Assembly: GCA_030612835.1 (NCBI GenBank)
Contig: JAUWND010000003.1
Span: forward strand, 1 to 40,802
Reading direction: 5' to 3'
DNA length: 40,802 nucleotides
From: Candidatus Methanophagales archaeon
GTDB lineage: Archaea; Halobacteriota; Syntropharchaeia; Alkanophagales; Methanospirareceae
The position numbers and the translations under genes were made by a program. Position 1 is the first letter of the stretch. The number at the start of each line of letters is the position of its first letter. Under the pieces are notes generated by a model. That model saw nothing but the letters and a program-made list of their open reading frames with translations. It was not told where the DNA came from and did not search any database. Below are positions 7,486-31,361 of the stretch, one piece after another.

Positions 7486-9447
7486 ATGGAAATAGCAGGA
7501 CTCCTCATATCTTTCGCTTTGATCTTCCCCTGGCTCGTGCTGTCAGCTTGCATCTTACTGGTTCTTGATTTTATCATGTTGTTAAAGGCGAAGGCAAAGG
7601 GGAAGAAGATTTCGGAACTCGCATTTATCGCCTTTTCCATTGCTTGCGTGATCGTGGCAGCCACATACATCATGCTCACTCAATCATTCGTGAGTGACAT
7701 CTTTTCGTTGAAAGAGGTTTATACGTATAGCTCATCCGGCTTGACCCTCCCGTATAAAGTGGGCGGCCCGTGGATAGGGAGCAGCGGGTCAATGCTATTT
7801 GTAACTTTCTTCTTAGTGCTCGTATATTTCGTGTTCAGGTTTAAAGGATTAGGAAAAGAAAGCGAGTCTCGCACCACCACATACAAAATACTGGACCTCT
7901 TCCTCATCTTCCTCCTTCTCGTCACCTTACTTCAGAGCCCTTTTGAGCGCCTACCCATAGTGCCCCCGGACGGTGCAGGGCTCAATCCACTGTTGCAAAC
8001 GTTTTGGGTGCTTGTGCATCCGCCCGTGATCTTTTTAGGATACGTATTTGTCTTCTTCGCTTTCGCACTGACGCTGGCGGGGATGATAACAGGCGAGAAG
8101 GAAGAACTAAGAGCGCCACTAAAATGTTCCCTGTATGCAGCCTGGCTGTTTTTGGCGCTTGGGATTGCGCTCGGCGGGTGGTGGTCATACGAAGTTCTCG
8201 GCTGGGGTGGCTACTGGGCTTGGGACCCGGTGGAGACGGCATCGTTACTGCCCTGGTTCGCTCTTACGGCATATTTCCACTTGCCGCCTAAGAGCAAAGA
8301 TCTGGCGAAAGAGTTCACGCTCATGGTTTCGTTTGTTATGATCATCTTCGCAACCGCACTTACTCGGGGCGGGTTATTGGAGTCGGTTCATGCGTTTGGA
8401 AAATCTCCTGTCGGACCCGTACTTCTGGGCTTCGGGTTTTGCGTTCTATTATTCTTCGTCTATCTTGCGGTAAGGGCGAAAAAACCGCTTTATACCTTTG
8501 ATATTGACTTTTCTTCGCTTCATTCTGTATCTATCTTAGTCGCTTACTGGTCGCTGATGTTTTTGTTGATTATATGCTTCTTCGGCGATGCCGCACCAAT
8601 AGTAGGTGGCATTTTCAGCGAGAAGACCATGAGCGCAACCGGTGTAGAATTTTATAACCGATGGTGCTTCCCATTTACGCTCGCTTTTGTAGCCGCTTTA
8701 TTGGGTTGCAACGTCGCCCTGAAATTAGAGCGATGTCTTATGCTAATCATAGCTGTACTGGGTATTGGGCTAGTTTTAGCATTGCTCGGTGGGCCAACGC
8801 CGAATCCACTGATGAATTTCGGACTCCCGCTTCTGCTAGTCGCGGGATTTGCTATCGCTTATAATTCCGCTAAGGTAATGCAAAAGCGGAATTCATTGCA
8901 TTTATGGGGCAAAACCCTTATTCATCTCGCAGTCATCATAATACTATTAGGTGTTTTTTTCAGTGCAGTTGATGCTGCTAAGAACCCAAGAAGCTTTGTC
9001 GCAACGCCAAATTCCACTAAAGATATTTTAGGGACACAAATAGAATTTGGGAATTTTACTATCTATACCGGCATGGGGCGCGTTTTCTATCCACAGCATG
9101 TTTTCGTAGGCCCGGAATACTCAGCGCTAAAAATGGATGTTACGATTAAAGAAGGCGGGGATGTTCATCACAGAGCTCTCTGGATGTATCACTATGCAAA
9201 TCATGGGATCGTGTCTGAGCCTTTAATCATCTCCACTCTCGCGGGGGACATATATGCATCCATGCACCCCACCGCATCCAGCCATAATTCTTCCTTTTAT
9301 GCCATTATGGGCGTGGAAGTCCAGCCGGAAGATTTTGTCGTCAAGATAAAAAAGATCCCCCTGATATGGCTTCTCTGGTTCGGGATAGTTTTAATGGGAA
9401 TTGGGATGGTTGTACTGCTAGTCGGAGAACTAAAAAGTAAAAAATAA
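7486..9447 (+). CDS. ccmF: Cytochrome c biogenesis haem lyase CcmF/NrfE
   Basis: WWD motif WGGYWAWDPVETASL, plus GLNPLLQ...HPP and TRGG..SVHAF; many TM helices. Confidence 0.95.
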   Translation: MEIAGLLISFALIFPWLVLSACILLVLDFIMLLKAKAKGKKISELAFIAFSIACVIVAATYIMLTQSFVSDIFSLKEVYTYSSSGLTLPYKVGGPWIGSSGSMLFVTFFLVLVYFVFRFKGLGKESESRTTTYKILDLFLIFLLLVTLLQSPFERLPIVPPDGAGLNPLLQTFWVLVHPPVIFLGYVFVFFAFALTLAGMITGEKEELRAPLKCSLYAAWLFLALGIALGGWWSYEVLGWGGYWAWDPVETASLLPWFALTAYFHLPPKSKDLAKEFTLMVSFVMIIFATALTRGGLLESVHAFGKSPVGPVLLGFGFCVLLFFVYLAVRAKKPLYTFDIDFSSLHSVSILVAYWSLMFLLIICFFGDAAPIVGGIFSEKTMSATGVEFYNRWCFPFTLAFVAALLGCNVALKLERCLMLIIAVLGIGLVLALLGGPTPNPLMNFGLPLLLVAGFAIAYNSAKVMQKRNSLHLWGKTLIHLAVIIILLGVFFSAVDAAKNPRSFVATPNSTKDILGTQIEFGNFTIYTGMGRVFYPQHVFVGPEYSALKMDVTIKEGGDVHHRALWMYHYANHGIVSEPLIISTLAGDIYASMHPTASSHNSSFYAIMGVEVQPEDFVVKIKKIPLIWLLWFGIVLMGIGMVVLLVGELKSKK

Positions 9448-9471
9448 AAACCAGAGAAATCATTTATTTAT

Positions 9472-10089
9472 CTATTTGTGTTTCCCCGGTGGATGACAGA
9501 CAGTACAGGTTTCTTCCGTAACGTCTACATCGTGGTCGTTGTGACATGCCACACACTCGTGTCCCTCATAACTGGGGCTCTCGTGGCCGACGTATTCACT
9601 GATTCTATGTGTCGTGTGCTTGATTGTAGGATGGCATTTAAAGCACGAGATAGTGGGGTCAGCGATTTCTTCTGGCGGTGTTCTGTGCTTACTATGGCAC
9701 TCCATGCAATGTTCCACTTTTGGAGATGCCGGTGGCTCCTGTTCTATGTGATCTGCCAGCGCTTCAAGAGCTTCGTTTGTGTCGCTTCCCTCCATCATCG
9801 CTTCCGCTATCGCTTCCGCATGGTGCGTGGCATGCCCCATGTACATGAACATTTCTATCCCATGCGGGTGATGGCAATCGTGACAATCCTCTATGTGATT
9901 ATGCACTGAATTTTGATGGGAGATCAAAAAATACTCCATCTCATGACAGTTCGAAGCACAGCTCTCCGGTTTTTCCATCTCTTCCATCATTGCAGGCATT
10001 ATAAATACCGCGCCAATCGCCGCACCGATGATGACACCGAGAGTAACCACTACGACCAATCCAATAATCACCTTCTCACCAAGTTCCAT
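9472..10089 (-). CDS. Membrane-anchored multiheme cytochrome c, NapC/NirT-like N-terminus
   Basis: Single N-terminal TM, then CASNCHEM...SVH...CHDCH, then CMECH, CFKCH, CVACH, CTVCH. ATG at 10089 follows GGAGGAG. Confidence 0.87.
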   Translation of the reverse strand: MELGEKVIIGLVVVVTLGVIIGAAIGAVFIMPAMMEEMEKPESCASNCHEMEYFLISHQNSVHNHIEDCHDCHHPHGIEMFMYMGHATHHAEAIAEAMMEGSDTNEALEALADHIEQEPPASPKVEHCMECHSKHRTPPEEIADPTISCFKCHPTIKHTTHRISEYVGHESPSYEGHECVACHNDHDVDVTEETCTVCHPPGKHK

Positions 10090-11398: not shown

Positions 11399-13081
11399 TT
11401 AATGTGTGAAATATGCTACTACCTCCGTTTTTGCAACAGAATCAATCATGACGAAACCGTATCGTTCGAACTGAACCACGTTTCCGAGTTCCGAAGCGAT
11501 CAACGGCTCGCCTATGCCTTCGTCTATCCCGTCTGGTCTCTTTACCCGGACTTTTATATTCTGTGTGGGCGCCCATTGGATAACCGGTACTTCGGGTTCG
11601 GGATCTATAACCTTGGCCTGTAATGGGTTAACGGACTCTATTTCCACAGTGCGGAGGTATTTCAGCCGTATTTTTTTTTGCCCCTCTTCTATCTTCGCGA
11701 AATCATCGCTACTTATGTAAACGGTATCGCCGGTTCTTATCTCACGGTAATCAGCTCTAGAAGGATGTTTCAAAGCCTTAGCTACGAAGGAATCGCCATC
11801 TTTTAGCTTCATCGCTTTCGGGTTACGCACAAAAAAATATCGCGATGCGAGCGCATCCACGGCTTTCCTGTTCTCCGCGTACAAATTCTTCATACTAACC
11901 GCTATGTCTGTTTGTGTAACGCCGATAGAGATAAAGAACTTACGAATTGCTTCTGACCGAAACCCTCTTCTACGTAGTGCTTTTAGCGTTGGGAGCTGTG
12001 GATCGTCCCAGCCGTCATATTCGCCGCTTTCTATCTGTTTCCTTAGCTCGGACGTGCTGAATTTACCGAATTCTTGCATCTTTATCCTACCCCAGAGTAT
12101 TGTTCTTGGATATCGCCAGCCGAGATAGTCATATATGAATTGCTGCCTCTGTCCCGATTTCATCAGGTCCTTGCCCCTTATTATATGCGTTACACCGAGT
12201 AGATGATCTTCTATCGCAGATTCAAAATCCAATGTTGGCCATACCACATATCTGCTGCCAACCCTGGGATGATCTTTTTTTAATATTCGGAATGCAACCC
12301 AATCTTTTAAAGCCGGGTCCGCACTTGCCATGTCCGTTTTTATCCTCAGAACCGCTTCCTTCTCTTCATAAGCGCCCGTTAGCATCTTCTCCCAATTGGC
12401 CATATTCGCCATAACGCTAACAGCTCTGTGAGGGCATGGTTCTTCCCGCTCTTTGTAGGCTTTGAACGCATCAGAACTGCAAAAGCAGACATAAGCCGCG
12501 CTCTTTTTTAGCAGTTCCTCTGCATATTTGTAATATATATCTATACGATCAGATGCCACTACCACTTCGTCTGGTTCGGCATCTAGCCATGCGCAGTCTT
12601 CAAGGTACCAGTCATAAGCCTCTAATAACGGGCGCTTTACGACAGGATCCGTATCATCAAACCGCAGAATGAATTTGCCTTTATACCGTTTCGCATATTC
12701 TGAATTTACTATTATGCCGCGGACACTGCCAAGCGTTGCAGCGCCGTTTGGATTGGGTGCGAATCGCATCACAACGCTTTCGCCTTCTGTAAGTTGCAGG
12801 TCAGGTAGTCTAACTTCCTGTTTCGCTTTCGCTTTCTCTTTTGGCTCTGCCACTAATTCCGGCGCTAGCTTGGTCAATTCCGCTATTCGATCATCCTTGC
12901 TCATTGATTCTATACGCGCTATCTCTTCTTTTACCAGTGCGTACACCTGTTTCGCATCCTTTCTCAATTCCGGATTCTCACCTAGGATCTTCTTCAGCAC
13001 GGAATCCACCTTAGGCGGTTTCTCATACCTTACCGCATTCTGCAGGGCGGATTTCCTTATCTTTGTTACTGTCTCTTCCAT
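11399..13081 (-). CDS. gltX: Glutamate--tRNA ligase (archaeal type)
   Basis: Motifs VMRFAPNPNG, LRFDDTDP, THIIRGKD, GWDDPQLPTL and QFERYGF. Confidence 0.97.
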   Translation of the reverse strand: MEETVTKIRKSALQNAVRYEKPPKVDSVLKKILGENPELRKDAKQVYALVKEEIARIESMSKDDRIAELTKLAPELVAEPKEKAKAKQEVRLPDLQLTEGESVVMRFAPNPNGAATLGSVRGIIVNSEYAKRYKGKFILRFDDTDPVVKRPLLEAYDWYLEDCAWLDAEPDEVVVASDRIDIYYKYAEELLKKSAAYVCFCSSDAFKAYKEREEPCPHRAVSVMANMANWEKMLTGAYEEKEAVLRIKTDMASADPALKDWVAFRILKKDHPRVGSRYVVWPTLDFESAIEDHLLGVTHIIRGKDLMKSGQRQQFIYDYLGWRYPRTILWGRIKMQEFGKFSTSELRKQIESGEYDGWDDPQLPTLKALRRRGFRSEAIRKFFISIGVTQTDIAVSMKNLYAENRKAVDALASRYFFVRNPKAMKLKDGDSFVAKALKHPSRADYREIRTGDTVYISSDDFAKIEEGQKKIRLKYLRTVEIESVNPLQAKVIDPEPEVPVIQWAPTQNIKVRVKRPDGIDEGIGEPLIASELGNVVQFERYGFVMIDSVAKTEVVAYFTH

Positions 13082-21818: not shown

Positions 21819-23510
21819 ATGAGAAAACAAGGATCAAAACCAACGAAATCACGATTTGAAATCTCGAAAATATCATCAACAGCAAAAGATAACAAAAAAT
21901 CTTCCCGCAGCGAATCCACAGAGACCACACAAAAAGAACACAACGAACGATGCCCTGATTGCAAGGATACAATTGAACGAATGCTCAAACAGATTTATGG
22001 CGATGTAAAACCGAATTACAAATTTAGAACTGGCACAAATCCAGAAGATTTCAGCGATAACCCATTTTATGACGATCTCCAGAGAATATATGAAAATCTC
22101 CAGAATTATAGGGGAAACAAAAACTTTGTGATTACGGATACACTACCCAACTGCGATTATTATGTTCCGGATCTAGGATTTGTTCTGGAATTTGATGAGT
22201 CTCAACATTTTACAATGCCACGAAAAATAGCACTGCTGAGCTATCCCTATAAATCACGATCTGGCTTTTCATTGGCACAATGGATTTCTACGTGCGATAA
22301 AATCAAAGCTCATGATCCGGATCCAATATACCGTGATGAGCAGCGTGCATGGTATGACACGCTAAGAGATTTTCTGCCTGAGTTCAAAGGTCTGGAACCC
22401 ACCGTAAGGCTTTATTCAAACGAGATGCAGTGGTGTAGCTTAAATCCTGATAATCGTGATGACATTGCACACTTCAAGGCCATTATTGAAGCCAGAAGAA
22501 GAGCGATAACTAACTGGATCGCCACAGTAGTCATCAAAAGCGGCTTTTGTAGCCTGGATGCTAAGTTTAAAGCGGACCTGAATATTAATCCAATCTCCGC
22601 TAATTTAAAAGCGGAATTAGATGCTAAGAAATTCACACTTACCGCAGCTGCAACAGTCACAGAGGAGCGAACGGATAAATGGACGATACACGATGGAAAT
22701 ACGATCTATAGCGCCTATAACGAAGATGAACGGCTGACTGTTTACAAATGCCATAACGAAGACCGGCTGAACGTTCTATCTAACGTTGTACAATCCATTG
22801 TGAAACGATCTACAGGCGATGGCGTCATTCTATTCCCCGCAGGCATGTTCTATACCGAAGAAAAACCGGCAAGCACATACTATAACAGAGTACAGGAAAC
22901 GCTCATACCCGTTCTCAAACAGACAACCAGCCATATCATTGTCTGCACAGGCGTAGATAGTGCCCGGGATCAGATCGCCTTAGCAATAGACAAAACCGGC
23001 ATCATCGCTAAAGGTCGTAAATTCTACACCGCGCCAGGTGAAGATCAAATAGAACTCGCACCGAATTATTCAACAGAAGAAGACGGTAAATCGCGTAGAT
23101 TCGAGCTGAACGACACCCGCTATTACATGTGCGTCTGCTACGACATCTTTGGGCTCCGGCATAAAGACCTGCACAATCCCGGAGTAGATGTCGTCCTGAA
23201 CCTGGTGCACTGTTTCTATCAGCCTGGAAAAGGCCCGTGTGGTTTAGCACTTTTTGCTAAACACGGCCTTGCAGGCGCATCGAAACAATGGAAATGCCCC
23301 GTATTTGCTGCAGTAATCTTTTTCAAACCGAACATCCCCACGCAGTGGCCTACTGGCGTATACTGGAACCAGGGCGATAAGAGCACCCGATTCTGGCGAT
23401 ATTCGGATAACCCGATCAAACCTGCGAATAACTTTGAAACAGAAATCGAAGAAGGTGTGGCTCTGGTTAGAATGTATAAACATCCGGGATTGGTGGCTCC
23501 GGCACAATAA
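21819..23510 (+). CDS. Fusion of a PD-(D/E)xK-like nuclease domain and a carbon-nitrogen hydrolase (nitrilase-fold) domain
   Basis: N half: CDYYVPDLGFVLEFDESQHF...QRAWYDTLRD. C half: VILFPAG, RKF, CVCYD. Confidence 0.7.
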   Translation: MRKQGSKPTKSRFEISKISSTAKDNKKSSRSESTETTQKEHNERCPDCKDTIERMLKQIYGDVKPNYKFRTGTNPEDFSDNPFYDDLQRIYENLQNYRGNKNFVITDTLPNCDYYVPDLGFVLEFDESQHFTMPRKIALLSYPYKSRSGFSLAQWISTCDKIKAHDPDPIYRDEQRAWYDTLRDFLPEFKGLEPTVRLYSNEMQWCSLNPDNRDDIAHFKAIIEARRRAITNWIATVVIKSGFCSLDAKFKADLNINPISANLKAELDAKKFTLTAAATVTEERTDKWTIHDGNTIYSAYNEDERLTVYKCHNEDRLNVLSNVVQSIVKRSTGDGVILFPAGMFYTEEKPASTYYNRVQETLIPVLKQTTSHIIVCTGVDSARDQIALAIDKTGIIAKGRKFYTAPGEDQIELAPNYSTEEDGKSRRFELNDTRYYMCVCYDIFGLRHKDLHNPGVDVVLNLVHCFYQPGKGPCGLALFAKHGLAGASKQWKCPVFAAVIFFKPNIPTQWPTGVYWNQGDKSTRFWRYSDNPIKPANNFETEIEEGVALVRMYKHPGLVAPAQ

Positions 23511-23511
23511 A

Positions 23512-23566
23512 TTGTTGACACCGATTAACGCAGAAGAAATTAAATCCGTGTAAATCTGCGTCTTAG
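23512..23566. repeat. REP-like periodic palindrome, family 1 copy in reverse orientation
   Basis: TTGACACCGATTAACGCAGAAG...AAATCCGTGTAAATCTGCGTCTTA is the reverse complement of the 4985 and 20328 copies. Confidence 0.85.
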
Positions 23567-23765
23567 TTGGTAGTTATACGTTATATATAATGAGAAATTG
23601 CAAAATAAGGAAACCGCGATCGCTGCTCTGGAACTTATAGAACAGCATTTGGGTATGACATCGCCAATATATCTCTTTAAAACTAGAGATTTGTCAAAAT
23701 CAGAAAATCACAAGATAGTAGATGCCATGTTCATGCCTACAACCCCCGCTTCTGAATCGCCCTCT

Positions 23766-24185
23766 TCACCTCGCTGATGCTTTCACCACCATCGTCAACA
23801 CATTCTTGCCATCCTTAAACTCATACTTGACCTCATCCACCAGCGTCTTCATGAAATATACCCCGAGTCCACCTATCTTCCGCTCTTCTAAACTCGCATC
23901 CAGATCTGGCGGAGGGACCGACGTGGGATCAAACGGCTTACCTCTGTCTTTGATGACCACTAGGACATCCTCACCACTTCTCCGGCAGGAGATATTAATC
24001 ATGCCCACATCTACGGTGTAGCCGTAGTTGATAATGTTAGTGCATGCCTCGTCAACAGCCATTTGAATCTCGAATATCTTACGATCCGCCAACCCAAATT
24101 CACGCATCGAATCAGTGATGAAATCACCTATCACCGCTAATTTCTCCAATTTCGATTCTATCTCGAGTTCAAACAGGTCTTCCAT
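23766..24185 (-). CDS. RsbW/SpoIIAB-like anti-sigma Ser kinase (HATPase_c)
   Basis: AVDEACTNIINYGY, IKDRGKPFDP and GGLGVYFMKTLVDEV. Confidence 0.93.
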   Translation of the reverse strand: MEDLFELEIESKLEKLAVIGDFITDSMREFGLADRKIFEIQMAVDEACTNIINYGYTVDVGMINISCRRSGEDVLVVIKDRGKPFDPTSVPPPDLDASLEERKIGGLGVYFMKTLVDEVKYEFKDGKNVLTMVVKASAR

Positions 24186-24194
24186 TTGTAATAT

Positions 24195-25559
24195 TCACTC
24201 TGCCTTCAATGCCATTAACGTAATATCATCAAATTGCGGCTCATCGCCACAGAAAGCTAACACTTCCCCCTTTATCTTCTCTATCATATCATCTGCAGAT
24301 AATTCATGATTCACCTTAATAGTCCTAATGAGTCGCTCTTCCCCAAACTGCTCCATGCTCTTATTTATCGCCTCGGTCACACCATCGGTATAGAAGACGA
24401 TTATATCACCACCGTCCAGTATGATCTTTCGCTCTTCCAGTTCTATATCCTCTATTGCGCCCAGCGCGATCCCTTTCGCATCGAGCCGCATTAGAGTTCT
24501 GGTCTTCGCTTTGAAGATCACCGGTGGGTTATGCCCTGCACTGACGTATGTCAACGTCCTCTCGCTCACATCTAATACCGCATAGAATAACGTAACGAAC
24601 ATACCTGATTTCGCATCTGCCGTGATCAAACTGTTCGCATCGCGTATTACCTCACTCACGCCAGAACTACGCGTTGCTTTCGCCCGGACTATCGTTCGTG
24701 ATAGCGCCATGAAAAGTGCGGCTGGAACGCCCTTGCCAGAGACATCAGCAATCGTGAGCCCGATCTTACCTTCCGAGATAGGGATGAAATCATAGAAATC
24801 TCCGCCAACCTCTTTCGCCGGAATATTCTGTGCTGCAAGCTCGAAACCCGGTAAATCTGGTATAGCATCAGGCAAAAAGCTCTGTTGTATGTCATGTGCC
24901 ATTTTTAATTCATACCGCTTTCGTTCCAGCTCAGCGGAGTATTTATCGCGCTCTTCCGCCGTCTCCAGCTCTCTTATCCGATTTGAAATGATGTATGCGA
25001 AGAAGAACATACCCAAAGAATTGGCGAAGATCATAGGTATGCTTACTTCCTCAACTACCTTAACCGCTTCTGAATATGGGTGCGCAAGGATAAGTGCAAG
25101 AATCATGTGGACTGATTCCATAAGGGCTGCAAATAGTACTGCTCCGGGAACGCCAATGAACTTGCCTCTTCTTAATATATATATAATACCCCCGAATAGT
25201 CCTGCAAGCACGGTGGCAAGTGAGCAGGGGACGCAGGTAAAGCCACCTAAGAAGTACCGATGTATGCCACCAATCAGTCCCGCACCCAAGCCGATCACAG
25301 GCCCACCAATTAATCCTGCGATCATCGGACCAAGGTCTCGGACGCTTGCAATCGCGCCGAATATCTCTATACCGGAGTAGGTGCCGAATATAGAGACCGC
25401 ACCGAAGATTAAAATAAAAATAGCACGATTTTTTAGCGTGAATTTTTTATCCAGGATCTCTCTGAAATATTTGGTGCGTGAGATCAGATAGGCGATTACC
25501 ACAATTACACATATCTTCTCGACCAGCACAAGTAAAAGCTCGATTATGGGATATGCCAT
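24195..25559 (-). CDS. 5TM-5TMR_LYT sensor fused to a SpoIIE/RsbU PP2C phosphatase
   Basis: LytS-type SIFGTYSG...RDLGPMIAGLIGGP...GGIHRY. PP2C motifs VGGDFYD, ADVSGKG, YTDGVTEA, DDIT. Confidence 0.93.
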   Translation of the reverse strand: MAYPIIELLLVLVEKICVIVVIAYLISRTKYFREILDKKFTLKNRAIFILIFGAVSIFGTYSGIEIFGAIASVRDLGPMIAGLIGGPVIGLGAGLIGGIHRYFLGGFTCVPCSLATVLAGLFGGIIYILRRGKFIGVPGAVLFAALMESVHMILALILAHPYSEAVKVVEEVSIPMIFANSLGMFFFAYIISNRIRELETAEERDKYSAELERKRYELKMAHDIQQSFLPDAIPDLPGFELAAQNIPAKEVGGDFYDFIPISEGKIGLTIADVSGKGVPAALFMALSRTIVRAKATRSSGVSEVIRDANSLITADAKSGMFVTLFYAVLDVSERTLTYVSAGHNPPVIFKAKTRTLMRLDAKGIALGAIEDIELEERKIILDGGDIIVFYTDGVTEAINKSMEQFGEERLIRTIKVNHELSADDMIEKIKGEVLAFCGDEPQFDDITLMALKAE

Positions 25560-25643
25560 TTAATTCACCTTATATAATATAATTGACCCATATTACATTT
25601 ATTCTATAATTGTATTACTAAAGCTAATGTCTTTAAAATTACA

Positions 25644-27365
25644 TCACAAATAATCTAACCGCGCACGAAGTTCGCCCACACCTTTTACCCAGCGGTCTAT
25701 CGGTGGCACTTCATCTGGATCTATAATGACATCAATCACGGTTGGCACGGCACGCTCGATCGCCTCCGGCAGTATCTCCAAAAGCTCGCCTGGACGTTCT
25801 ATTCTGTATCCTTTTGCACCGAGTCCTTCGGCAACCCGTGCAAGATTTACCTCCTTAAAAGTCGTGGATACTGTCTTATCCCCAAGAGCGAATCGCTGTA
25901 GCTCGTGCACCAATCCCAATTTCGCATTGTTCTGAACAATCCAAACAACGGGAATGTCATAGCTCACGGCAGTGGCTATCTCCATTCCGTTCATCAGGAA
26001 ACAGCCATCACCAACAATCGCAACTACTGGCCTATCAGGAGCGGCGAGTTTTCCGCCTATTGCTGCTGCTGTTGCATACCCCATTGTCAACATACCAAAG
26101 GCTGAAATAAAATTCGGCTTTTTGAATCGCATGTAATGAATCGCCCAGCATGTATGGTTGCCTGTATCCACGAAGACAATTGCATCTTCGGGCAAACACT
26201 CCTGAATCTCACGCATCATCGTCTGAGGTTTTATCGGTACCGATTCTGAGAACATCTTCTCCTCATCAACGCACATGCCCACGCTCTGCTTGAACTTAAC
26301 AATATCTTCGATTGGGCGATCCTCACTCGGGTCGTACTTTTGCAAAGCTCTTAAAACTCGAAATGAAATTTCGTCTAACACCGCACGACAATCTCCAACA
26401 AGACCAATGTCTGCCACATAGTTCTTCCCGATCTCTGATGGATCAATATTGATGTGGATTAACGAATCACTTGGTTTAAGTTTCGGGTCCCAGGAAAGGG
26501 TCGTCAGTTGATTCAGGCTGGCGCCAACCACTAACAATACATCTACATCACCCATGAGATATTCTTCTGCCGCGGGCGAACCACTAAATCCGAAAACACC
26601 CAACGAAAGAGCGTGGTCCTCAGGGAATGTACCTTTTGCCTTCGGTGTCGTCGCCACAGGAATGTTTAACAGCTCCGCTAATTCGAGGACTTCTAAAGTC
26701 GCATCGGATGCGATCACACCAGAGCCAACGAGCATTGCCGGCTTCTTTGCCGTTACGAGCTTTTCTGTTGCGTCTATCACTAATTTCCTGTCGAAATACT
26801 CTGATTTGACTTTATATCCGCCTGGCGGAAGTAGCGTATCTTCTATTTCCGCTTCCATAATGTCCTTGGGATAACTGATATGTACGGGACCTTTCTTACC
26901 GCTGAAAGCGATTCTGAATGCCTCTCTCAATGTCTCTGGCATTTTGTATCGGGATATTATCATCTCACTATATTTCGTTATCGGGTCGAACATAGCGACG
27001 GAATCAACACCCTCTTTTGTAGAATCTTGAAACGTACCTTTCCCATAGATACTCGTGGGAACCTGTCCTGTTATTACTAATAGAGGTATATTATCCATAT
27101 ACGCATTTGCGACTCCAGTAACAAGGTTTGTAGCGCCGGGCCCGGATGTTGCATAACATACACCGATCTTACCGCTTACCCGCGCGTATCCATCAGCCAT
27201 AAAAGCCGCACCTTCTTCATGTTTTGATAATATCGGCTTAATCGCATCCTGCTTGTTTATAGCATCGTAAAGCGGAACCAATGATGTACCCGGGACACCA
27301 AAGATGTATTCGACACCCTCACCTTCCAAATACCTTAATAACAGTTCTGCGGTCGTTATCTTCAT
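25644..27365 (-). CDS. Thiamine-pyrophosphate-dependent enzyme, acetolactate synthase-like
   Basis: FGVPG, HEEGAAFMADGYAR, TSGPGATN, and TPP motif GDG...NN. Confidence 0.92.
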   Translation of the reverse strand: MKITTAELLLRYLEGEGVEYIFGVPGTSLVPLYDAINKQDAIKPILSKHEEGAAFMADGYARVSGKIGVCYATSGPGATNLVTGVANAYMDNIPLLVITGQVPTSIYGKGTFQDSTKEGVDSVAMFDPITKYSEMIISRYKMPETLREAFRIAFSGKKGPVHISYPKDIMEAEIEDTLLPPGGYKVKSEYFDRKLVIDATEKLVTAKKPAMLVGSGVIASDATLEVLELAELLNIPVATTPKAKGTFPEDHALSLGVFGFSGSPAAEEYLMGDVDVLLVVGASLNQLTTLSWDPKLKPSDSLIHINIDPSEIGKNYVADIGLVGDCRAVLDEISFRVLRALQKYDPSEDRPIEDIVKFKQSVGMCVDEEKMFSESVPIKPQTMMREIQECLPEDAIVFVDTGNHTCWAIHYMRFKKPNFISAFGMLTMGYATAAAIGGKLAAPDRPVVAIVGDGCFLMNGMEIATAVSYDIPVVWIVQNNAKLGLVHELQRFALGDKTVSTTFKEVNLARVAEGLGAKGYRIERPGELLEILPEAIERAVPTVIDVIIDPDEVPPIDRWVKGVGELRARLDYL

Positions 27366-27371
27366 TTATAA

Positions 27372-27713
27372 TCACACGCCCCGGGAGCTATTTACAGCCT
27401 CTTCCTCTTGTTCATAGATCGCAAATAGCTGTGTAAAGCCCGCGATGTCGAAGACCTCTTTTACATATGGCTTTAAACACGCTAATTTCAAATCTCCTTC
27501 CGCCTTCTTCAACCGCTTCAGTGATGCAAGCATCACCCGCAATCCCGAGCTGCTGATATAGTCCACGCCATCGAAATTCACGACTATTCTCACACTGCCG
27601 TTATCAATCAGTGTGCTTATACTTCGCTCTAGCTCGTTTGATGAATATGCATCAAGCCTGCCGTTCAAGGTCAATATCGCCACATTACCCTCCTTTTTTT
27701 CTTCTAGTTTCAT
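27372..27713 (-). CDS. STAS anti-anti-sigma factor (RsbV/SpoIIAA-like)
   Basis: GRLDA and VDYISSSGLR (phosphorylatable Ser). Confidence 0.93.
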   Translation of the reverse strand: MKLEEKKEGNVAILTLNGRLDAYSSNELERSISTLIDNGSVRIVVNFDGVDYISSSGLRVMLASLKRLKKAEGDLKLACLKPYVKEVFDIAGFTQLFAIYEQEEEAVNSSRGV

Positions 27714-28657
27714 TTCGCCATTCCCGGACCCCCACCACCACGGATAGTATATCCCGTGCCGCGTGGTCTAACAATAGGACCTGAGCCAGGATGATCGTAC
27801 CTGTAAGGCGAGTAGTAGCCATAGCCACCATAGCCACAGACCCAAAAGAACCCCCAGGGGTAATATCTTGTTCGCTCTTGGACTACACGAGTTGCATTTA
27901 CCGCAGCAGTCTCATTATCCGCAGAGACATTGAAGAACTCATGCCGGAACGTTTCGTTCGCCGCTACTTTATCTTTCAGCGCAATCATCTCGCCATACGA
28001 TTTCCTCGCCTCTATGTTCACTACCGCATCCACAGGTCCACTAAATTTGTGTTGAGGATACGTAATCGCATATATAGTACCCGCAAGAGGGGCCACATGC
28101 TCTATCTCCGTGGGTTCCTCGGTTTTAGCCCGGACACCACTCGTTAGTGATACAAAATCACTCGCTTCTATACGGATCTTATATACGTCTTCCTCATAAT
28201 CATCGGAGCCCGCGGCTATACAGACATAATTGTTACGACCGTCAAAATACGTGGTGACATAAGCGATTATATCACCATTTGCAGCCGAGAACCACGAATA
28301 ATCCCAATACGGCTCCCAGCCACTGCTCTTCTCGCTTTCTATCGCAGTAGTGACAAAACCGATCTCTTCTAACTTATCGTGCACCGTATTTGCAATATCT
28401 CTTGACTCTCGCCCATATCTGTACATTATACCGGCAACGCCATTTTCATGCACCCGCTCTGCCGAGTAATGCTCTATTGAATCGCCACCAAGTGAGTAGT
28501 AGCTAAGGTAAGAAACCAAGGATAAGGCACTTTGTTGTCCCTCCGTATATTTCGGAGTTGCTAAAAGCGGTGCTATAACAAACGGCATAGAAGCCACTAT
28601 GAGTATCAAAATAACAACAAAAGCTACAATTGTGCCTATATCCTCTTTAGCTACCAT
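27710..28657 (-). CDS. Membrane-anchored protein with Tyr/Gly-rich tail ending RGGGGPGMAK (DUF4247-like tail)
   Basis: N-terminal TM; the C-terminus resembles the RGGGPGxGK tails found in DUF350/DUF4178 operons. Confidence 0.7.
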   Translation of the reverse strand: MVAKEDIGTIVAFVVILILIVASMPFVIAPLLATPKYTEGQQSALSLVSYLSYYSLGGDSIEHYSAERVHENGVAGIMYRYGRESRDIANTVHDKLEEIGFVTTAIESEKSSGWEPYWDYSWFSAANGDIIAYVTTYFDGRNNYVCIAAGSDDYEEDVYKIRIEASDFVSLTSGVRAKTEEPTEIEHVAPLAGTIYAITYPQHKFSGPVDAVVNIEARKSYGEMIALKDKVAANETFRHEFFNVSADNETAAVNATRVVQERTRYYPWGFFWVCGYGGYGYYSPYRYDHPGSGPIVRPRGTGYTIRGGGGPGMAK

Positions 28658-28681
28658 TTCTTCTCTTTTTCTTCCATTCTA

Positions 28682-28747
28682 TAACCACAAGATTACGCAG
28701 ATTTTCACGAGATTCTTCTGTGTTAATCTTGTGTAATCTCGTGGTTT
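28682..28747. repeat. REP-like periodic palindrome, family 2 copy
   Basis: TAACCACAAGATTACGCAGATTTTCACGAGA...TCTGTGTTAATCTTGTGTAATCTCGTGGTT. Confidence 0.87.
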
Positions 28748-28763
28748 CTTACCCAGAAGCCAT

Positions 28764-29249
28764 TCAAGACATTATCACCGCCATTGCCACTACCGAAACC
28801 GCAATGTACAAAACACCTGAAAGGATACCAACTGCGATGTTCCCTTTACTTATCTCCTCTTGCAATTTTATCTTCGGCACTAACACCTTATCAAACGCGA
28901 AGAAGAAGAGCGTAGCAACGAGCGAAGTCCCTATGCTCCAGCCAATTGTTGCGAGCATATCATAAAGTAGGCCCGTCCATAGCGACATACTCGCTGTCAC
29001 AACCACTAAGCCAGCCCCTGGTGACATAATCGTTGCCGCAACTACCAGTCCTATACCAAGCAGCATCAAACTGAAAAATATTGCAACCGCAGTATTATTC
29101 CCTTCCATCGCTTCCTGCAAATCGAACTTCCGGAACACGAGAATATCATATATCTTTACCAGCAGCATGCTAAGTCCTACACCTATTAACAGCCACAATA
29201 GTGCTCCACCCACCGTACCAATTATTATTTCTGCTATCGCCATATTCAT
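28764..29249 (-). CDS. Tandem DUF350 membrane protein
   Basis: Two repeats: DLQEAMEGNNTAVAI and KLQEEISKGNIAVGI. Confidence 0.85.
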   Translation of the reverse strand: MNMAIAEIIIGTVGGALLWLLIGVGLSMLLVKIYDILVFRKFDLQEAMEGNNTAVAIFFSLMLLGIGLVVAATIMSPGAGLVVVTASMSLWTGLLYDMLATIGWSIGTSLVATLFFFAFDKVLVPKIKLQEEISKGNIAVGILSGVLYIAVSVVAMAVIMS

Positions 29250-29587
29250 GCACCTCCTATTATTTTATCCATAACAATCTCCACTTTACCTTCCAGCATA
29301 TCGCCCATGAACTCCAAAGCCATTTTCGCATCCTTACACCCGCATGACGCCATCTCCACGAATATCATATTCTCTTCCGGATACGTATGGACTGCGATAT
29401 GGCTCTCGGCAAGCAATACAACCGCCGTCATACCCTGTGGCGAGAACTTATGGCTGACTGTTTCCAGTAACGTCAAATCCATCATCTTCGCCGCTTTCAT
29501 TAAAATCCCCTCTATCAACATAACATCTTCCATCTTTTCCACGCTGCAATGTGTTAATAGTCCTATAAGCACTTGAATCTTTGCCAT
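29246..29587 (-). CDS. speD: S-adenosylmethionine decarboxylase family pyruvoyl proenzyme
   Basis: HKFSPQGMTAVVLLAE-SHIAVHTYPE with self-cleavage site E/SH. Confidence 0.85.
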   Translation of the reverse strand: MAKIQVLIGLLTHCSVEKMEDVMLIEGILMKAAKMMDLTLLETVSHKFSPQGMTAVVLLAESHIAVHTYPEENMIFVEMASCGCKDAKMALEFMGDMLEGKVEIVMDKIIGGA

Positions 29588-29592
29588 TTTAT

Positions 29593-29946
29593 TTACCCGG
29601 GGATCAAACCCTCGCCCTTGAACAATGAATTTGCCTCCTCGTAATCTAAGTCCTCAGGCGGTAGAATCAAGTCAGGCGTTGGAAACGCTTCTTCTTCGTC
29701 CAGCACCTCGTCTATCTCGATGTCCTCTCCCACAAGCAGACCCCTTGACCGTATCAAATCAAATATCTGTGAGTAAAGCACATTGTATTTCGCTTCTGTA
29801 AGTTCGCCCCTTTCGTTAATAGCCGCAAGTTCATTGTCCGGCTCGTTTATCTTTTCTAATATCTCGTCCTTGTTCTCCGTCGGGAATGCCCAGGTACCAC
29901 CACCGGAAATGCTTATTAAGAAGTATGCTCGTGACATTGCAATCAC
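29593..29946 (-). CDS. Acidic hypothetical protein coupled to pspA (possible PspA-associated protein)
   Basis: GTGA overlap with the pspA stop; C-terminal PDLILPPEDL...LFKGEGLIPG. Confidence 0.75.
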   Translation of the reverse strand: MIAMSRAYFLISISGGGTWAFPTENKDEILEKINEPDNELAAINERGELTEAKYNVLYSQIFDLIRSRGLLVGEDIEIDEVLDEEEAFPTPDLILPPEDLDYEEANSLFKGEGLIPG

Positions 29947-30689
29947 TTCCTATCCAGCTCTTCGTCAAGCGCGGAAAGCGAGTCTGAAGTCTTTAACTCG
30001 CGCTCGATTTCGCTTAGCCCAAGGTCCGTAGTTCCTGCGGCAGTGCCGAGTTCTGCCGATGCCTCTGCCTTCGCCTCTTCCATCCTGATCTTCTCCGTCA
30101 TTCGCTGCACCGTTAAATCAACATCACCAATCTCGCCATCTATTCCTGAGAGCGCGTCATTAACTCTCTTGGATGCTTTTGCCATCGCATAATCTGATTT
30201 TAAATCAGTTCGCTTATCTGCAAATCGCTGTATCTTCGCCGTTAAATCTACCTGTTTGTCCTTCAGCATCCTCACTTTCTTCTCCATATCCGCAACGGAC
30301 TGCTGAAGCATCTGTGTCCGTTCTCTTGCTCTGTTCTCTTCCTCTAACAGTTGTGTTGCGGCACTGTTCAGTTGTTCCACTTGCATTTCCGCTTTCTCCA
30401 ATTTACCGCCCTCTAACTCCGGCAGTTTCTCCTCCAATGCCAGCGCCCGCTTTCTGTAGTCCAGTGCACTGTTATGCACAGATACCGCCTTCTTCTGCGC
30501 TTCATTCAATTCACGCTTTTTCAGGTTCTTCGCTGCTATCGAATCCCGCACTGCGACATCTACCTTCTTCTTCTCTTCTACTAGTTTCTCGTATGCGTAG
30601 TCAAGTTGTTCGTCAGGATCTTCAAATCGCCCTATCACTTTACTGGTCTTCGCTTTTGCCACATTAGAAAACCTATTAAACAATCCCAT
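29943..30689 (-). CDS. pspA: PspA/IM30 (ESCRT-III superfamily) protein
   Basis: MGLFNRFSNVAKAK amphipathic N-terminus, EDPDEQL motif, coiled coil, RMTEKIRMEEAKAEA. Confidence 0.9.
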   Translation of the reverse strand: MGLFNRFSNVAKAKTSKVIGRFEDPDEQLDYAYEKLVEEKKKVDVAVRDSIAAKNLKKRELNEAQKKAVSVHNSALDYRKRALALEEKLPELEGGKLEKAEMQVEQLNSAATQLLEEENRARERTQMLQQSVADMEKKVRMLKDKQVDLTAKIQRFADKRTDLKSDYAMAKASKRVNDALSGIDGEIGDVDLTVQRMTEKIRMEEAKAEASAELGTAAGTTDLGLSEIERELKTSDSLSALDEELDRK

Positions 30690-30705
30690 TTTTTATTTTA
30701 GCCCC

Positions 30706-31251
30706 CTAATAAAGTTCCAAACTTCTCCTTGATATTTCATTACCTTTATATACCTCCACCCTTGCCCCCGGATGCTTTTCTATGCTGAGTATTTCACCGG
30801 TTCGGTCAATCTCGCAGTCCGCATACGTTACCTGCGATCCCACAGTAATACTCCATGGGAAAGACCCTTTTACCAGGACAATCTGTGCTTTTCCTACTTC
30901 GTTCACTTTCACCTTTTCGCCTTGAAAGTCGAATACAGCGCCTTCTTTTAATTCCCCGGGGTCTGGCGCATCTGTAGACTCGACTTCGTCAAGTAACTCA
31001 AGTGTTGTCCCCTCCTTAGATAACCATTTGTGCTCTTCTGTGTCCGGAAACTCTAAATAGAACTCTTCCCACTGTCCACCACCCCAATCATATACCAGTT
31101 TTCCAAGCACGGTGAAATCTAATCCCTCTATCGTTCCAATACTACCTTCACTTAATTCTTCTGTTTTCGTATCTGAACTACCTTCTCGCTGTTTCTTCCT
31201 CTTTTCCTTCTTTATTTCCAGTATCCTCTTACTTCGTCCGAATAAACCCAT
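30706..31251 (-). CDS. DUF4178 domain protein
   Basis: FTVLGKLVYDWGGGQWEEFYL...WLS...GSFPW...LSIE...VYKG pattern. Confidence 0.8.
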   Translation of the reverse strand: MGLFGRSKRILEIKKEKRKKQREGSSDTKTEELSEGSIGTIEGLDFTVLGKLVYDWGGGQWEEFYLEFPDTEEHKWLSKEGTTLELLDEVESTDAPDPGELKEGAVFDFQGEKVKVNEVGKAQIVLVKGSFPWSITVGSQVTYADCEIDRTGEILSIEKHPGARVEVYKGNEISRRSLELY

Positions 31252-31361
31252 TGTCAACCTAAGCTATCTTTTAATTATATATTGTTTACCGGCTATAAAA
31301 ACTTACGTGTTGGTTTGAATGGCTGCATCACAAAAGACAGTATAGTTTGGAGTAACGGTAG

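Follow-up and report, generated by a model that had tools for sequence, protein, structure and literature searches.

Control of bacterial sigma factors is the textbook role of RsbU/V/W-type partner switches, and archaea are without sigma factors. What, then, would a complete switch of this type control in an archaeon? The question is raised by four consecutive genes of a methane-oxidising ANME-1 archaeon (Candidatus Methanophagales), located on a contig of a metagenome-assembled genome (GenBank JAUWND010000003.1) of which a stretch of 40,802 nucleotides was analysed, hereafter the window. An initial annotation had described this locus as a complete Rsb module in a sigma-less host, with a thiamine diphosphate (ThDP) enzyme occupying the place where an output would be expected. 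In silico analyses confirmed the observation and supported its interpretation in part. The locus is tentatively read here as a horizontally mobile and lineage-specific form of a partner-switch operon that is widespread in archaea, a form in which a ThDP gene has been inserted between the STAS gene and the phosphatase gene. The host genome (G000), which is 86% complete, gave no match to Sigma70_r2, in agreement with a sigma-less host. The features of the locus, together with the gene upstream of it, are as follows.

27372-27713, minus strand: STAS protein, RsbV/SpoIIAA-like, single domain, 113 amino acids (aa) (list of open reading frames [ORFs], Pfam, NCBIfam)
25644-27365, minus strand: ThDP-dependent carboligase-like enzyme of the acetolactate-synthase superfamily, 573 aa (TPP_enzyme_N/M/C)
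25560-25643: spacer of 84 nt between the enzyme and phosphatase genes (ORF coordinates)
24195-25559, minus strand: membrane sensor phosphatase, 5TM-LYT + SpoIIE/PP2C, 454 aa (Pfam)
23766-24185, minus strand: RsbW/SpoIIAB-like GHKL serine kinase, 139 aa (HATPase_c_2)
27710-28657, minus strand: membrane protein orf315, 315 aa, upstream of STAS (ORF list; context only)

The four genes, their order and their coordinates are as first described, as are the gaps of 6 nt between STAS and enzyme and of 9 nt between phosphatase and kinase; the gap of 84 nt between enzyme and phosphatase is an addition to that description. All three partner-switch families are present, namely a STAS protein with a conserved phosphorylatable serine, a GHKL kinase and a SpoIIE/PP2C phosphatase. 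The STAS protein matches Pfam STAS (2.2e-22) and the anti-sigma-factor antagonist superfamily model TIGR00377 (89.5 bits, above the cut-off of 53.45). Its residues Y52, S54, S55, S56, G57 and L58 are invariant across 50 homologues within a motif Y-I-S-S-S-G-L-R-V, so that the SSSG reported earlier is indeed intact (S54-S55-S56-G57). In an alignment to SpoIIAA structures, S55 falls opposite the first serine of the SpoIIAA "DSSG", which we take to be the phosphorylation acceptor there, and Ser55 is probably the phospho-acceptor of the window protein. The kinase matches HATPase_c_2 (1.9e-29) over profile positions 2-126 of 127, its N-box and G-box residues are visible in the translation, and it reaches 67.4 bits against the RsbW models of NCBIfam, under the equivalog cut-off of 145. 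The phosphatase combines a 5TM-5TMR_LYT domain (PF07694; 6.9e-49, aa 30-194) with a SpoIIE domain (2.2e-52, aa 263-452, profile positions 2-190 of 192). Kinase and phosphatase both score under the RsbW and SpoIIE equivalog cut-offs of NCBIfam, as does the STAS protein with respect to SpoIIAA. Genome family searches found a single SpoIIE gene, a single 5TM-LYT gene and a single strong HATPase_c_2/RsbW-type gene in G000.

The enzyme carries the three domains TPP_enzyme_N (4e-45), TPP_enzyme_M (3.9e-41) and TPP_enzyme_C (6.3e-43), and its catalytic E50, F112-Q113, G452-D453-G454 and N479-N480 (GDG...NN) are conserved. It scores under every NCBIfam equivalog cut-off, whether for acetolactate synthase (ALS), AlsS, pyruvate oxidase (PoxB), glyoxylate carboligase (Gcl) or sulfoacetaldehyde acetyltransferase (Xsc), the best score being 495.5 vs 866 (NF004919), with 483.5 vs 538.35 for TIGR00118 and 332.8 vs 510 for AlsS. 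The closest relative in PDB is BbmA (518.6 bits over residues 3-555), followed by E. coli ALS I (320.7 bits), CsmA (307.3 bits) and plant acetohydroxyacid synthase (AHAS; ca. 270-277 bits); a literature search on CsmA and CBOA gave nothing relevant. The enzyme is 39% identical to the IlvB of G000 itself, which is encoded with IlvN and IlvC on a separate contig (ilvB-ilvN-ilvC on C156), and neither ilvN nor ilvC was found in the window by ORF list and Pfam. An enzyme tree of 46 rows unites the cassette enzymes (37 rows) with support 100, and their clade is sister to a Riflebacteria-type group. It contains two sister subclades, one archaeal (14 rows, support 98) and one from Chloroflexota (16 rows, support 92), besides a deeper 7-row group that bears bacterial names. 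Judged by its sequence, the enzyme is thus not a housekeeping IlvB and belongs to a separate, BbmA-like clade; the initial annotation had argued against ordinary branched-chain synthesis from the lack of an adjacent ilvN or ilvC. Where the gene is retained, its ratio of nonsynonymous to synonymous substitution rates (dN/dS) is 0.06-0.13.

In the sister clade (45-48% identity; Riflebacteria and unclassified bacteria; L031-L034, L036, L079, L080), the enzyme gene is preceded by two ORFs, of the citrate-synthase family in L079 and without Pfam family in L031, and then come a GAF-PAS histidine kinase and a response regulator; STAS is not among the flanking genes.

Linkage was examined from the enzyme side in 42 loci obtained by a scan of 185,579 species genomes, plus the genome G021 that came from a further genome search. 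A STAS gene occurs directly upstream of the enzyme in all ten distinct genome loci in which the enzyme is at least 72% identical, whether in ANME-1 (L024, L025, L026, L030, L023) or in Dehalococcoidales, Chloroflexota and unclassified bacteria (L027, L028, L029, L035, L062). A PP2C gene lies within 3 kb in the same ten, and RsbW in nine (the contig of L028 ends). Neither STAS nor RsbW was found at any of the 33 loci with an enzyme at most 48% identical. Metagenome loci gave a similar picture, with STAS upstream in 13 of the 14 evaluable and PP2C downstream in 7 of the 9 evaluable; L072 and L073 are without the downstream PP2C, and L072 retains the STAS-enzyme pair with no PP2C or RsbW within 6 kb. 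Since it recurs in 10/10 genome loci, the four-gene order is not a chance juxtaposition. The ThDP gene is therefore linked to Rsb genes elsewhere too, contrary to the lack of linkage by which the initial annotation was to be refuted, and the four-gene cassette is common to two domains of life. The enzyme-bearing form of the switch constitutes one clade that includes ANME-1, other archaea and Dehalococcoidia/Chloroflexota; P0061 and P0186 are encoded on long contigs of Methanobacteriaceae/Methanobacterium. Homologues number 709 for STAS and 2999 for the enzyme.

In the 10 loci with both ORF ends readable, STAS and enzyme overlap by 4 nt at one extreme and are 6 nt apart at the other, and one protein (P0046, 687 aa) is a natural STAS-enzyme fusion. 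The pair is also kept where the sensor of the phosphatase has been swapped, for dCache+HAMP in L026 and for Cache+HAMP in L029. The five bacterial carriers have sigma genes, none of which is found within 18 kb of the cassette (the nearest is 18 kb off or on another contig). The distribution is patchy, with the enzyme in 3/41 ANME-1 relatives and cassette-type STAS in 2/81 Chloroflexota relatives. A complex predicted for enzyme and STAS, from alignments of 60 and 50 rows respectively, scored 0.02 and 0.01 vs a mark of 0.32, which speaks neither for nor against binding. In the literature searched, with subscription papers and supplements outside its coverage, no description of an archaeal 5TM-LYT-PP2C module and no partner switch linked to an acetolactate-synthase-like enzyme were found; on archaeal RsbW/RsbU, one paper makes passing mention of REC-PP2C fusions (PMC5847659).

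STAS may regulate the enzyme, possibly directly. On balance, and with due reserve, the enzyme is regarded here as a client of the switch in this clade, co-translated with STAS, probably controlled by the binding of STAS or RsbW and probably acting on pyruvate. In the mechanism envisaged, RsbW would phosphorylate Ser55 of STAS, and the membrane phosphatase would strip off the phosphate in response to its LytS-type sensor, whose cue would be either a membrane signal or a small carboxylate (pyruvate, for example). Client proteins would then be bound by STAS in its unphosphorylated form or by the kinase thus set free, and the embedded enzyme would be one of these clients, or would at least be co-expressed with STAS. 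The enzyme would probably condense pyruvate to acetolactate as an overflow valve. Further clients are likely, the candidates being a CoA-transferase and a STAS-methyltransferase fusion (see below), and they would explain why the switch survives the loss of the enzyme.

The product proposed for the enzyme is hinted at by an acetolactate decarboxylase (TIGR01252, 236.2 bits vs a cut-off of 180.65) that is encoded directly upstream of the STAS-enzyme pair in L026 and L085. Two further observations concern this gene. In L026 (5202-5838) it is in two frames near its C-terminus, by frameshift or assembly error. On contig C170 of G000 (L114 7132-8729) a 97-aa decarboxylase remnant, with N- and C-terminal pieces joined, adjoins a CoA-transferase that is 80% identical to a Chloroflexota copy.

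Several lines of evidence weigh against the enzyme being a client of the switch. The first comes from sampling on the STAS side. Of 401 genomes sampled from the phylum, 45 have a close homologue of the window STAS (E<=1e-25), and the best 30 places were taken as loci and screened with tblastn. Finding a complete Rsb-type module without a sigma factor is thus nothing exceptional for an archaeon of this phylum. The enzyme is found in none of the 15 STAS-centred loci outside the ANME-1 family; there, STAS is directly followed by the 5TM-LYT-PP2C gene in 10 loci and is contained within ORFs of 506-696 aa in the other 5. Extension of eight loci to 12-16 kb showed a compact STAS-PP2C-RsbW unit in each, set between unrelated flanks. 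The STAS/5TM-LYT-PP2C/RsbW unit is therefore autonomous in several archaeal families.

The second line comes from the ANME-1 family itself, in which 15 genomes were evaluable (G482 was left out). The state of the enzyme gene in these is as follows.

Enzyme intact (6): G000, G001, G233, G413, G217, G021
Enzyme internally deleted (1): G187
Enzyme gone or reduced to a short remnant, with PP2C directly after STAS (8): G002, G003, G004, G006, G441, G225, G179, G472

At least 4 different deletion scars can be distinguished, and the remnants differ (enzyme residues 452-511, 1-35 or 521-573, or a methyltransferase stub), which indicates several independent losses. Among the same-genus genomes the phosphatase is found in all seven others, and of these only G001 has the enzyme. 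The STAS, PP2C and RsbW ORFs remain open in the deletion genomes, with a dN/dS of 0.07-0.39 for the regulatory genes (pairs including deletion genomes), similar to the 0.13-0.29 of enzyme-bearing pairs; judged by these ratios, the regulatory genes are under purifying selection without the enzyme. Contigs from RNA-labelled libraries, of which the bridging alone was used, depth being unfit for ranking genes and DNA carry-over being possible, bridge STAS-enzyme and PP2C-RsbW in run X2, and in runs X3 and X7 join STAS directly to PP2C (joints 25603->27385 and 25943->27363); uncovered bins over the enzyme gene in X3 and X7 were given no weight of their own. Because the switch persists in relatives that have lost the enzyme, the latter is dispensable to it, an optional add-on and not a fixed output, and the initial annotation's placing of the enzyme where an output would be expected is not borne out (0/15 outside ANME-1, lost or broken in 9/15 inside). 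Phosphatases that accompany the enzyme, whether from ANME-1 or from Chloroflexota, group into one clade (support 93) nested among enzyme-less archaeal ones in an 18-row PP2C tree; this tree is midpoint-rooted and the enzyme-less modules sampled are all archaeal, so that polarity is not settled.

The third line relates to the chemistry and to the pairing itself. The arginine of the AHAS "RFxDR" is replaced by L287 ("ASLNQL") and the tryptophan of "QWQ" by L489 ("HELQ"), both of which we take, from plant, yeast and E. coli AHAS, to be acceptor-site residues; the IlvB of G000 and a Methanobacterium IlvB keep R and W at these positions. The literature search found no paper on BbmA nor on its natural reaction. 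The decarboxylase neighbour is limited to one ANME-1 lineage. In L069 a GNAT-like ORF takes the place of STAS upstream of the enzyme, and the fusion P0046 is a singleton, its residues 1-125 searched against proteins of 377-1203 aa having returned P0046 alone.

Nor does the sensor signature of the phosphatase point to this enzyme in particular. According to PMC10653868, E. coli BtsS binds pyruvate via R72, R99, C110 and S113, both pyruvate-site arginines are highly conserved among LytS-type kinases, R72 tolerated no replacement, and a replacement at the S113 position is reported for some receptors. R74, R101 and C112 of the window sensor align with R72, R99 and C110, and A115 occupies the position of S113. 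The pyruvate-type sensor of the initial annotation is thus supported in that three of the four contact residues are kept; these three are also found in enzyme-less modules. Because the same arginines occur in modules without the enzyme and are highly conserved among LytS kinases, no tie between sensor and enzyme can be drawn from them; the signature suggests a small-carboxylate site in general, one that is not specifically tied to the ThDP enzyme.

Variation at the sensor was observed in three further genomes. In the enzyme-less ANME-1 genome G003 (L130), the phosphatase sensor has a glutamine at the position of BtsS Arg72, a single case. In G021 (L023), an additional stand-alone 5TM-LYT gene (12158-12811) stands ahead of the phosphatase, and the STAS gene (9367-9707) is split over two frames, by frameshift or assembly error, next to an intact enzyme. 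The same additional 5TM-LYT piece is found in G472, where the enzyme is absent.

Other genes recur around the cassette. A butyryl-CoA:acetate-type CoA-transferase is found next to it in L027, L028, L030, L062 (two copies), L067, L070, L077 and G003; between domains its copies share 72-88% identity, with a family score under the equivalog cut-off. In the Chloroflexota relative G085, a cassette-type STAS lies 32 nt upstream of this CoA-transferase, and enzyme, PP2C and RsbW were not found within 14 kb of it. In L070 the CoA-transferase is preceded by STAS-X, a protein of 435-457 aa with an N-terminal STAS domain; the C-terminal part of the 457-aa form gave no usable match in ESM Atlas. An S-adenosylmethionine (SAM) methyltransferase recurs in L024, L026, L062, L070 and L083. 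This repeated adjacency to or fusion with a CoA-transferase, a methyltransferase and the ThDP enzyme indicates that STAS proteins of this family are recurrently enzyme-linked. On another contig of G000 (C99; L176 1548-2711, minus strand), a 387-aa fusion of STAS and SAM methyltransferase is encoded, whose STAS part shares 39% identity with that of the cassette and retains a "YISSAG" motif; this protein may serve the only RsbW/PP2C pair of G000 as a second substrate. Finally, a transporter of the Xan_ur_permease family adjoins RsbW in different archaeal families (L023 14702-15856, L168 9201-10907 and L171 9708-11477), and the two long forms of this permease (568 and 589 aa) have C-terminal extensions without Pfam match.

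The main rival to the enzyme as a client is that it is a passenger, riding in a mobile metabolic island with a CoA-transferase, a methyltransferase and at times an acetolactate decarboxylase, and sharing at most transcription with a switch whose output lies elsewhere, with no control at the protein level. This is a serious possibility, in line with a three-gene switch that is autonomous in other archaea and kept after enzyme loss, with the patchiness of the cassette in both ANME-1 and Chloroflexota relatives, with accessory genes in varying order (CoA-transferase at 9 loci, methyltransferase at 5, GNAT-like at 3, STAS-X at 3) and with the permease gene next to RsbW at three loci. It accounts less well for a slot directly after STAS that survives both interdomain transfer and sensor swaps within a few nucleotides of spacing, or for an enzyme that keeps its STAS partner even in L072, which has neither PP2C nor RsbW within 6 kb. 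In G001, of the same genus, the gene map of L024, a near-identical contig, places an opposite-strand methyltransferase gene in the enzyme/phosphatase spacer, so that the gene pairs STAS-enzyme and PP2C-RsbW can be transcribed separately.

A bolder form of the client reading, which we consider rather unlikely, would make STAS a phospho-switchable regulatory subunit of the ALS-like enzyme, in the place of IlvN, and also of the CoA-transferase and the methyltransferase. Sensor phosphatase and RsbW would then gate the flux of pyruvate and acetyl-CoA without transcription in anaerobic archaea and Dehalococcoidia, and the role of partner switches in sigma-less organisms would thereby be explained.

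A link that is metabolic and not physical, in which the enzyme consumes or produces the ligand of the 5TM-LYT sensor, for instance pyruvate, had also been put forward initially and is compatible with the client reading; it is nevertheless improbable. ALS-like enzymes use pyruvate, the BtsS pyruvate contacts are conserved in the sensor and a decarboxylase of acetolactate adjoins in L026 and L085. Against this, the enzyme stays in L026 and L029 in spite of their Cache/HAMP sensors, the sensor signature is the same in enzyme-less modules, and pyruvate is no more than a putative substrate of the enzyme.

The strictest version, in which the enzyme replaces the sigma factor as the sole output and RsbW keeps it inactive until STAS releases it, could draw on the conserved four-gene synteny, on the lack of a sigma match in the archaeon and of a sigma gene near the bacterial cassettes, and on the single PP2C and single RsbW in the genome, yet it is very unlikely given that 15 of 15 loci outside ANME-1 and 9 of 15 ANME-1 genomes do without an intact enzyme, that the regulatory genes persist under purifying selection in its absence, and that the kinase gene stands at the far end of the operon, the constant neighbour of the enzyme being STAS and not RsbW.

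As regards the surroundings of the locus, orf315 and STAS share 4 nt in the window, where the stop of the former overlaps the start of the latter. No Pfam or NCBIfam family was found for its product, and it occurs at the module only in L022/L024, L129, L108 and L109, a genus-limited link. Directly upstream is a Psp-type membrane-stress cluster (28764-31257, minus strand; DUF4178, PspA/IM30, PspAA, AdoMet_dc-like, DUF350), after which comes orf315; this cluster was considered as a part of the system and rejected because its linkage to the switch is confined to this genus. On the other side, an ORF of 563 aa (21819-23510, plus strand) matches no Pfam or NCBIfam family and is found beside RsbW in G006 and G005 at 76-84% identity. 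The block from orf315 to RsbW is flanked by short dispersed repeats at 23510-23575 (40 listed genome matches out of 192 first-look candidates) and 28675-28760 (64 matches, 224 candidates, often paired ca. 100 nt apart). They resemble miniature inverted-repeat transposable elements, and these two repeats account for depth spikes and loose ends seen in read mapping. A scan of 22500-29500 with Rfam (E<=1) gave 0 matches. The GC content across the region is 0.44-0.47, and a foreign origin, considered from base composition, finds no sign there.

These data sharpen the question of what partner switches control in sigma-less archaea by naming candidate outputs, namely the ThDP enzyme, the CoA-transferase and the methyltransferase. 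The presence and absence of the enzyme across ANME-1 constitutes a natural loss series for comparison, and the enzyme-bearing clade has moved between archaea and Dehalococcoidia. Should direct control of the enzyme be true, the principle of the SiaABCD system (see below) would extend to central carbon metabolism and to archaea; otherwise, the locus still documents how a metabolic gene entered a signalling operon by insertion and was repeatedly lost again.

Among known systems, the RsbU/RsbV/RsbW and SpoIIE/SpoIIAA/SpoIIAB switches of Firmicutes have the same three protein families encoded by tightly linked genes. They differ from the locus described here in that the window organism gave no sigma match and the bacterial copies have no adjacent sigma gene, in the LytS-type membrane sensor of the window phosphatase and in the gene order, STAS-enzyme-PP2C-RsbW. 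With LytS/BtsS receptors the phosphatase has in common the PF07694 domain and the equivalents of R72, R99 and C110, S113 being replaced by alanine, whereas the output domain is a PP2C phosphatase here and a histidine kinase there.

The enzyme resembles those of the IlvB/IlvN and AlsS/AlsD systems in its three-domain ThDP fold, catalytic Glu, FQ and GDG...NN, in a gene for a small protein that abuts the catalytic gene and, as for AlsS/AlsD, in an adjacent acetolactate decarboxylase in one lineage, presumably the arrangement of budA-budB and alsS-alsD. In contrast to IlvB/IlvN, the small neighbour is a STAS protein and not the ACT-domain IlvN, and the acceptor-site Arg and Trp are replaced. With BbmA (PDB 8x3x, 8x3y, 8xod) the enzyme has in common an "LVH" acceptor-loop motif, and G484 of BbmA, mutated in 8xod, aligns with L489.

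By analogy, the closest functional precedent appears to be SiaABCD of P. aeruginosa. The two differ in several respects, the enzyme being a dispensable ThDP carboligase here and a GGDEF cyclase there, the association being known here from gene linkage and one fusion, and the SiaA model matching the window phosphatase weakly (43.2 bits vs a cut-off of 700). As described in PMC8457831 and 10.1101/674879, however, SiaABCD likewise unites a PP2C/kinase/small-phosphoprotein switch and an enzyme gene in one sigma-free operon, and SiaC, its STAS-like protein, binds to SiaD, a diguanylate cyclase that it activates.

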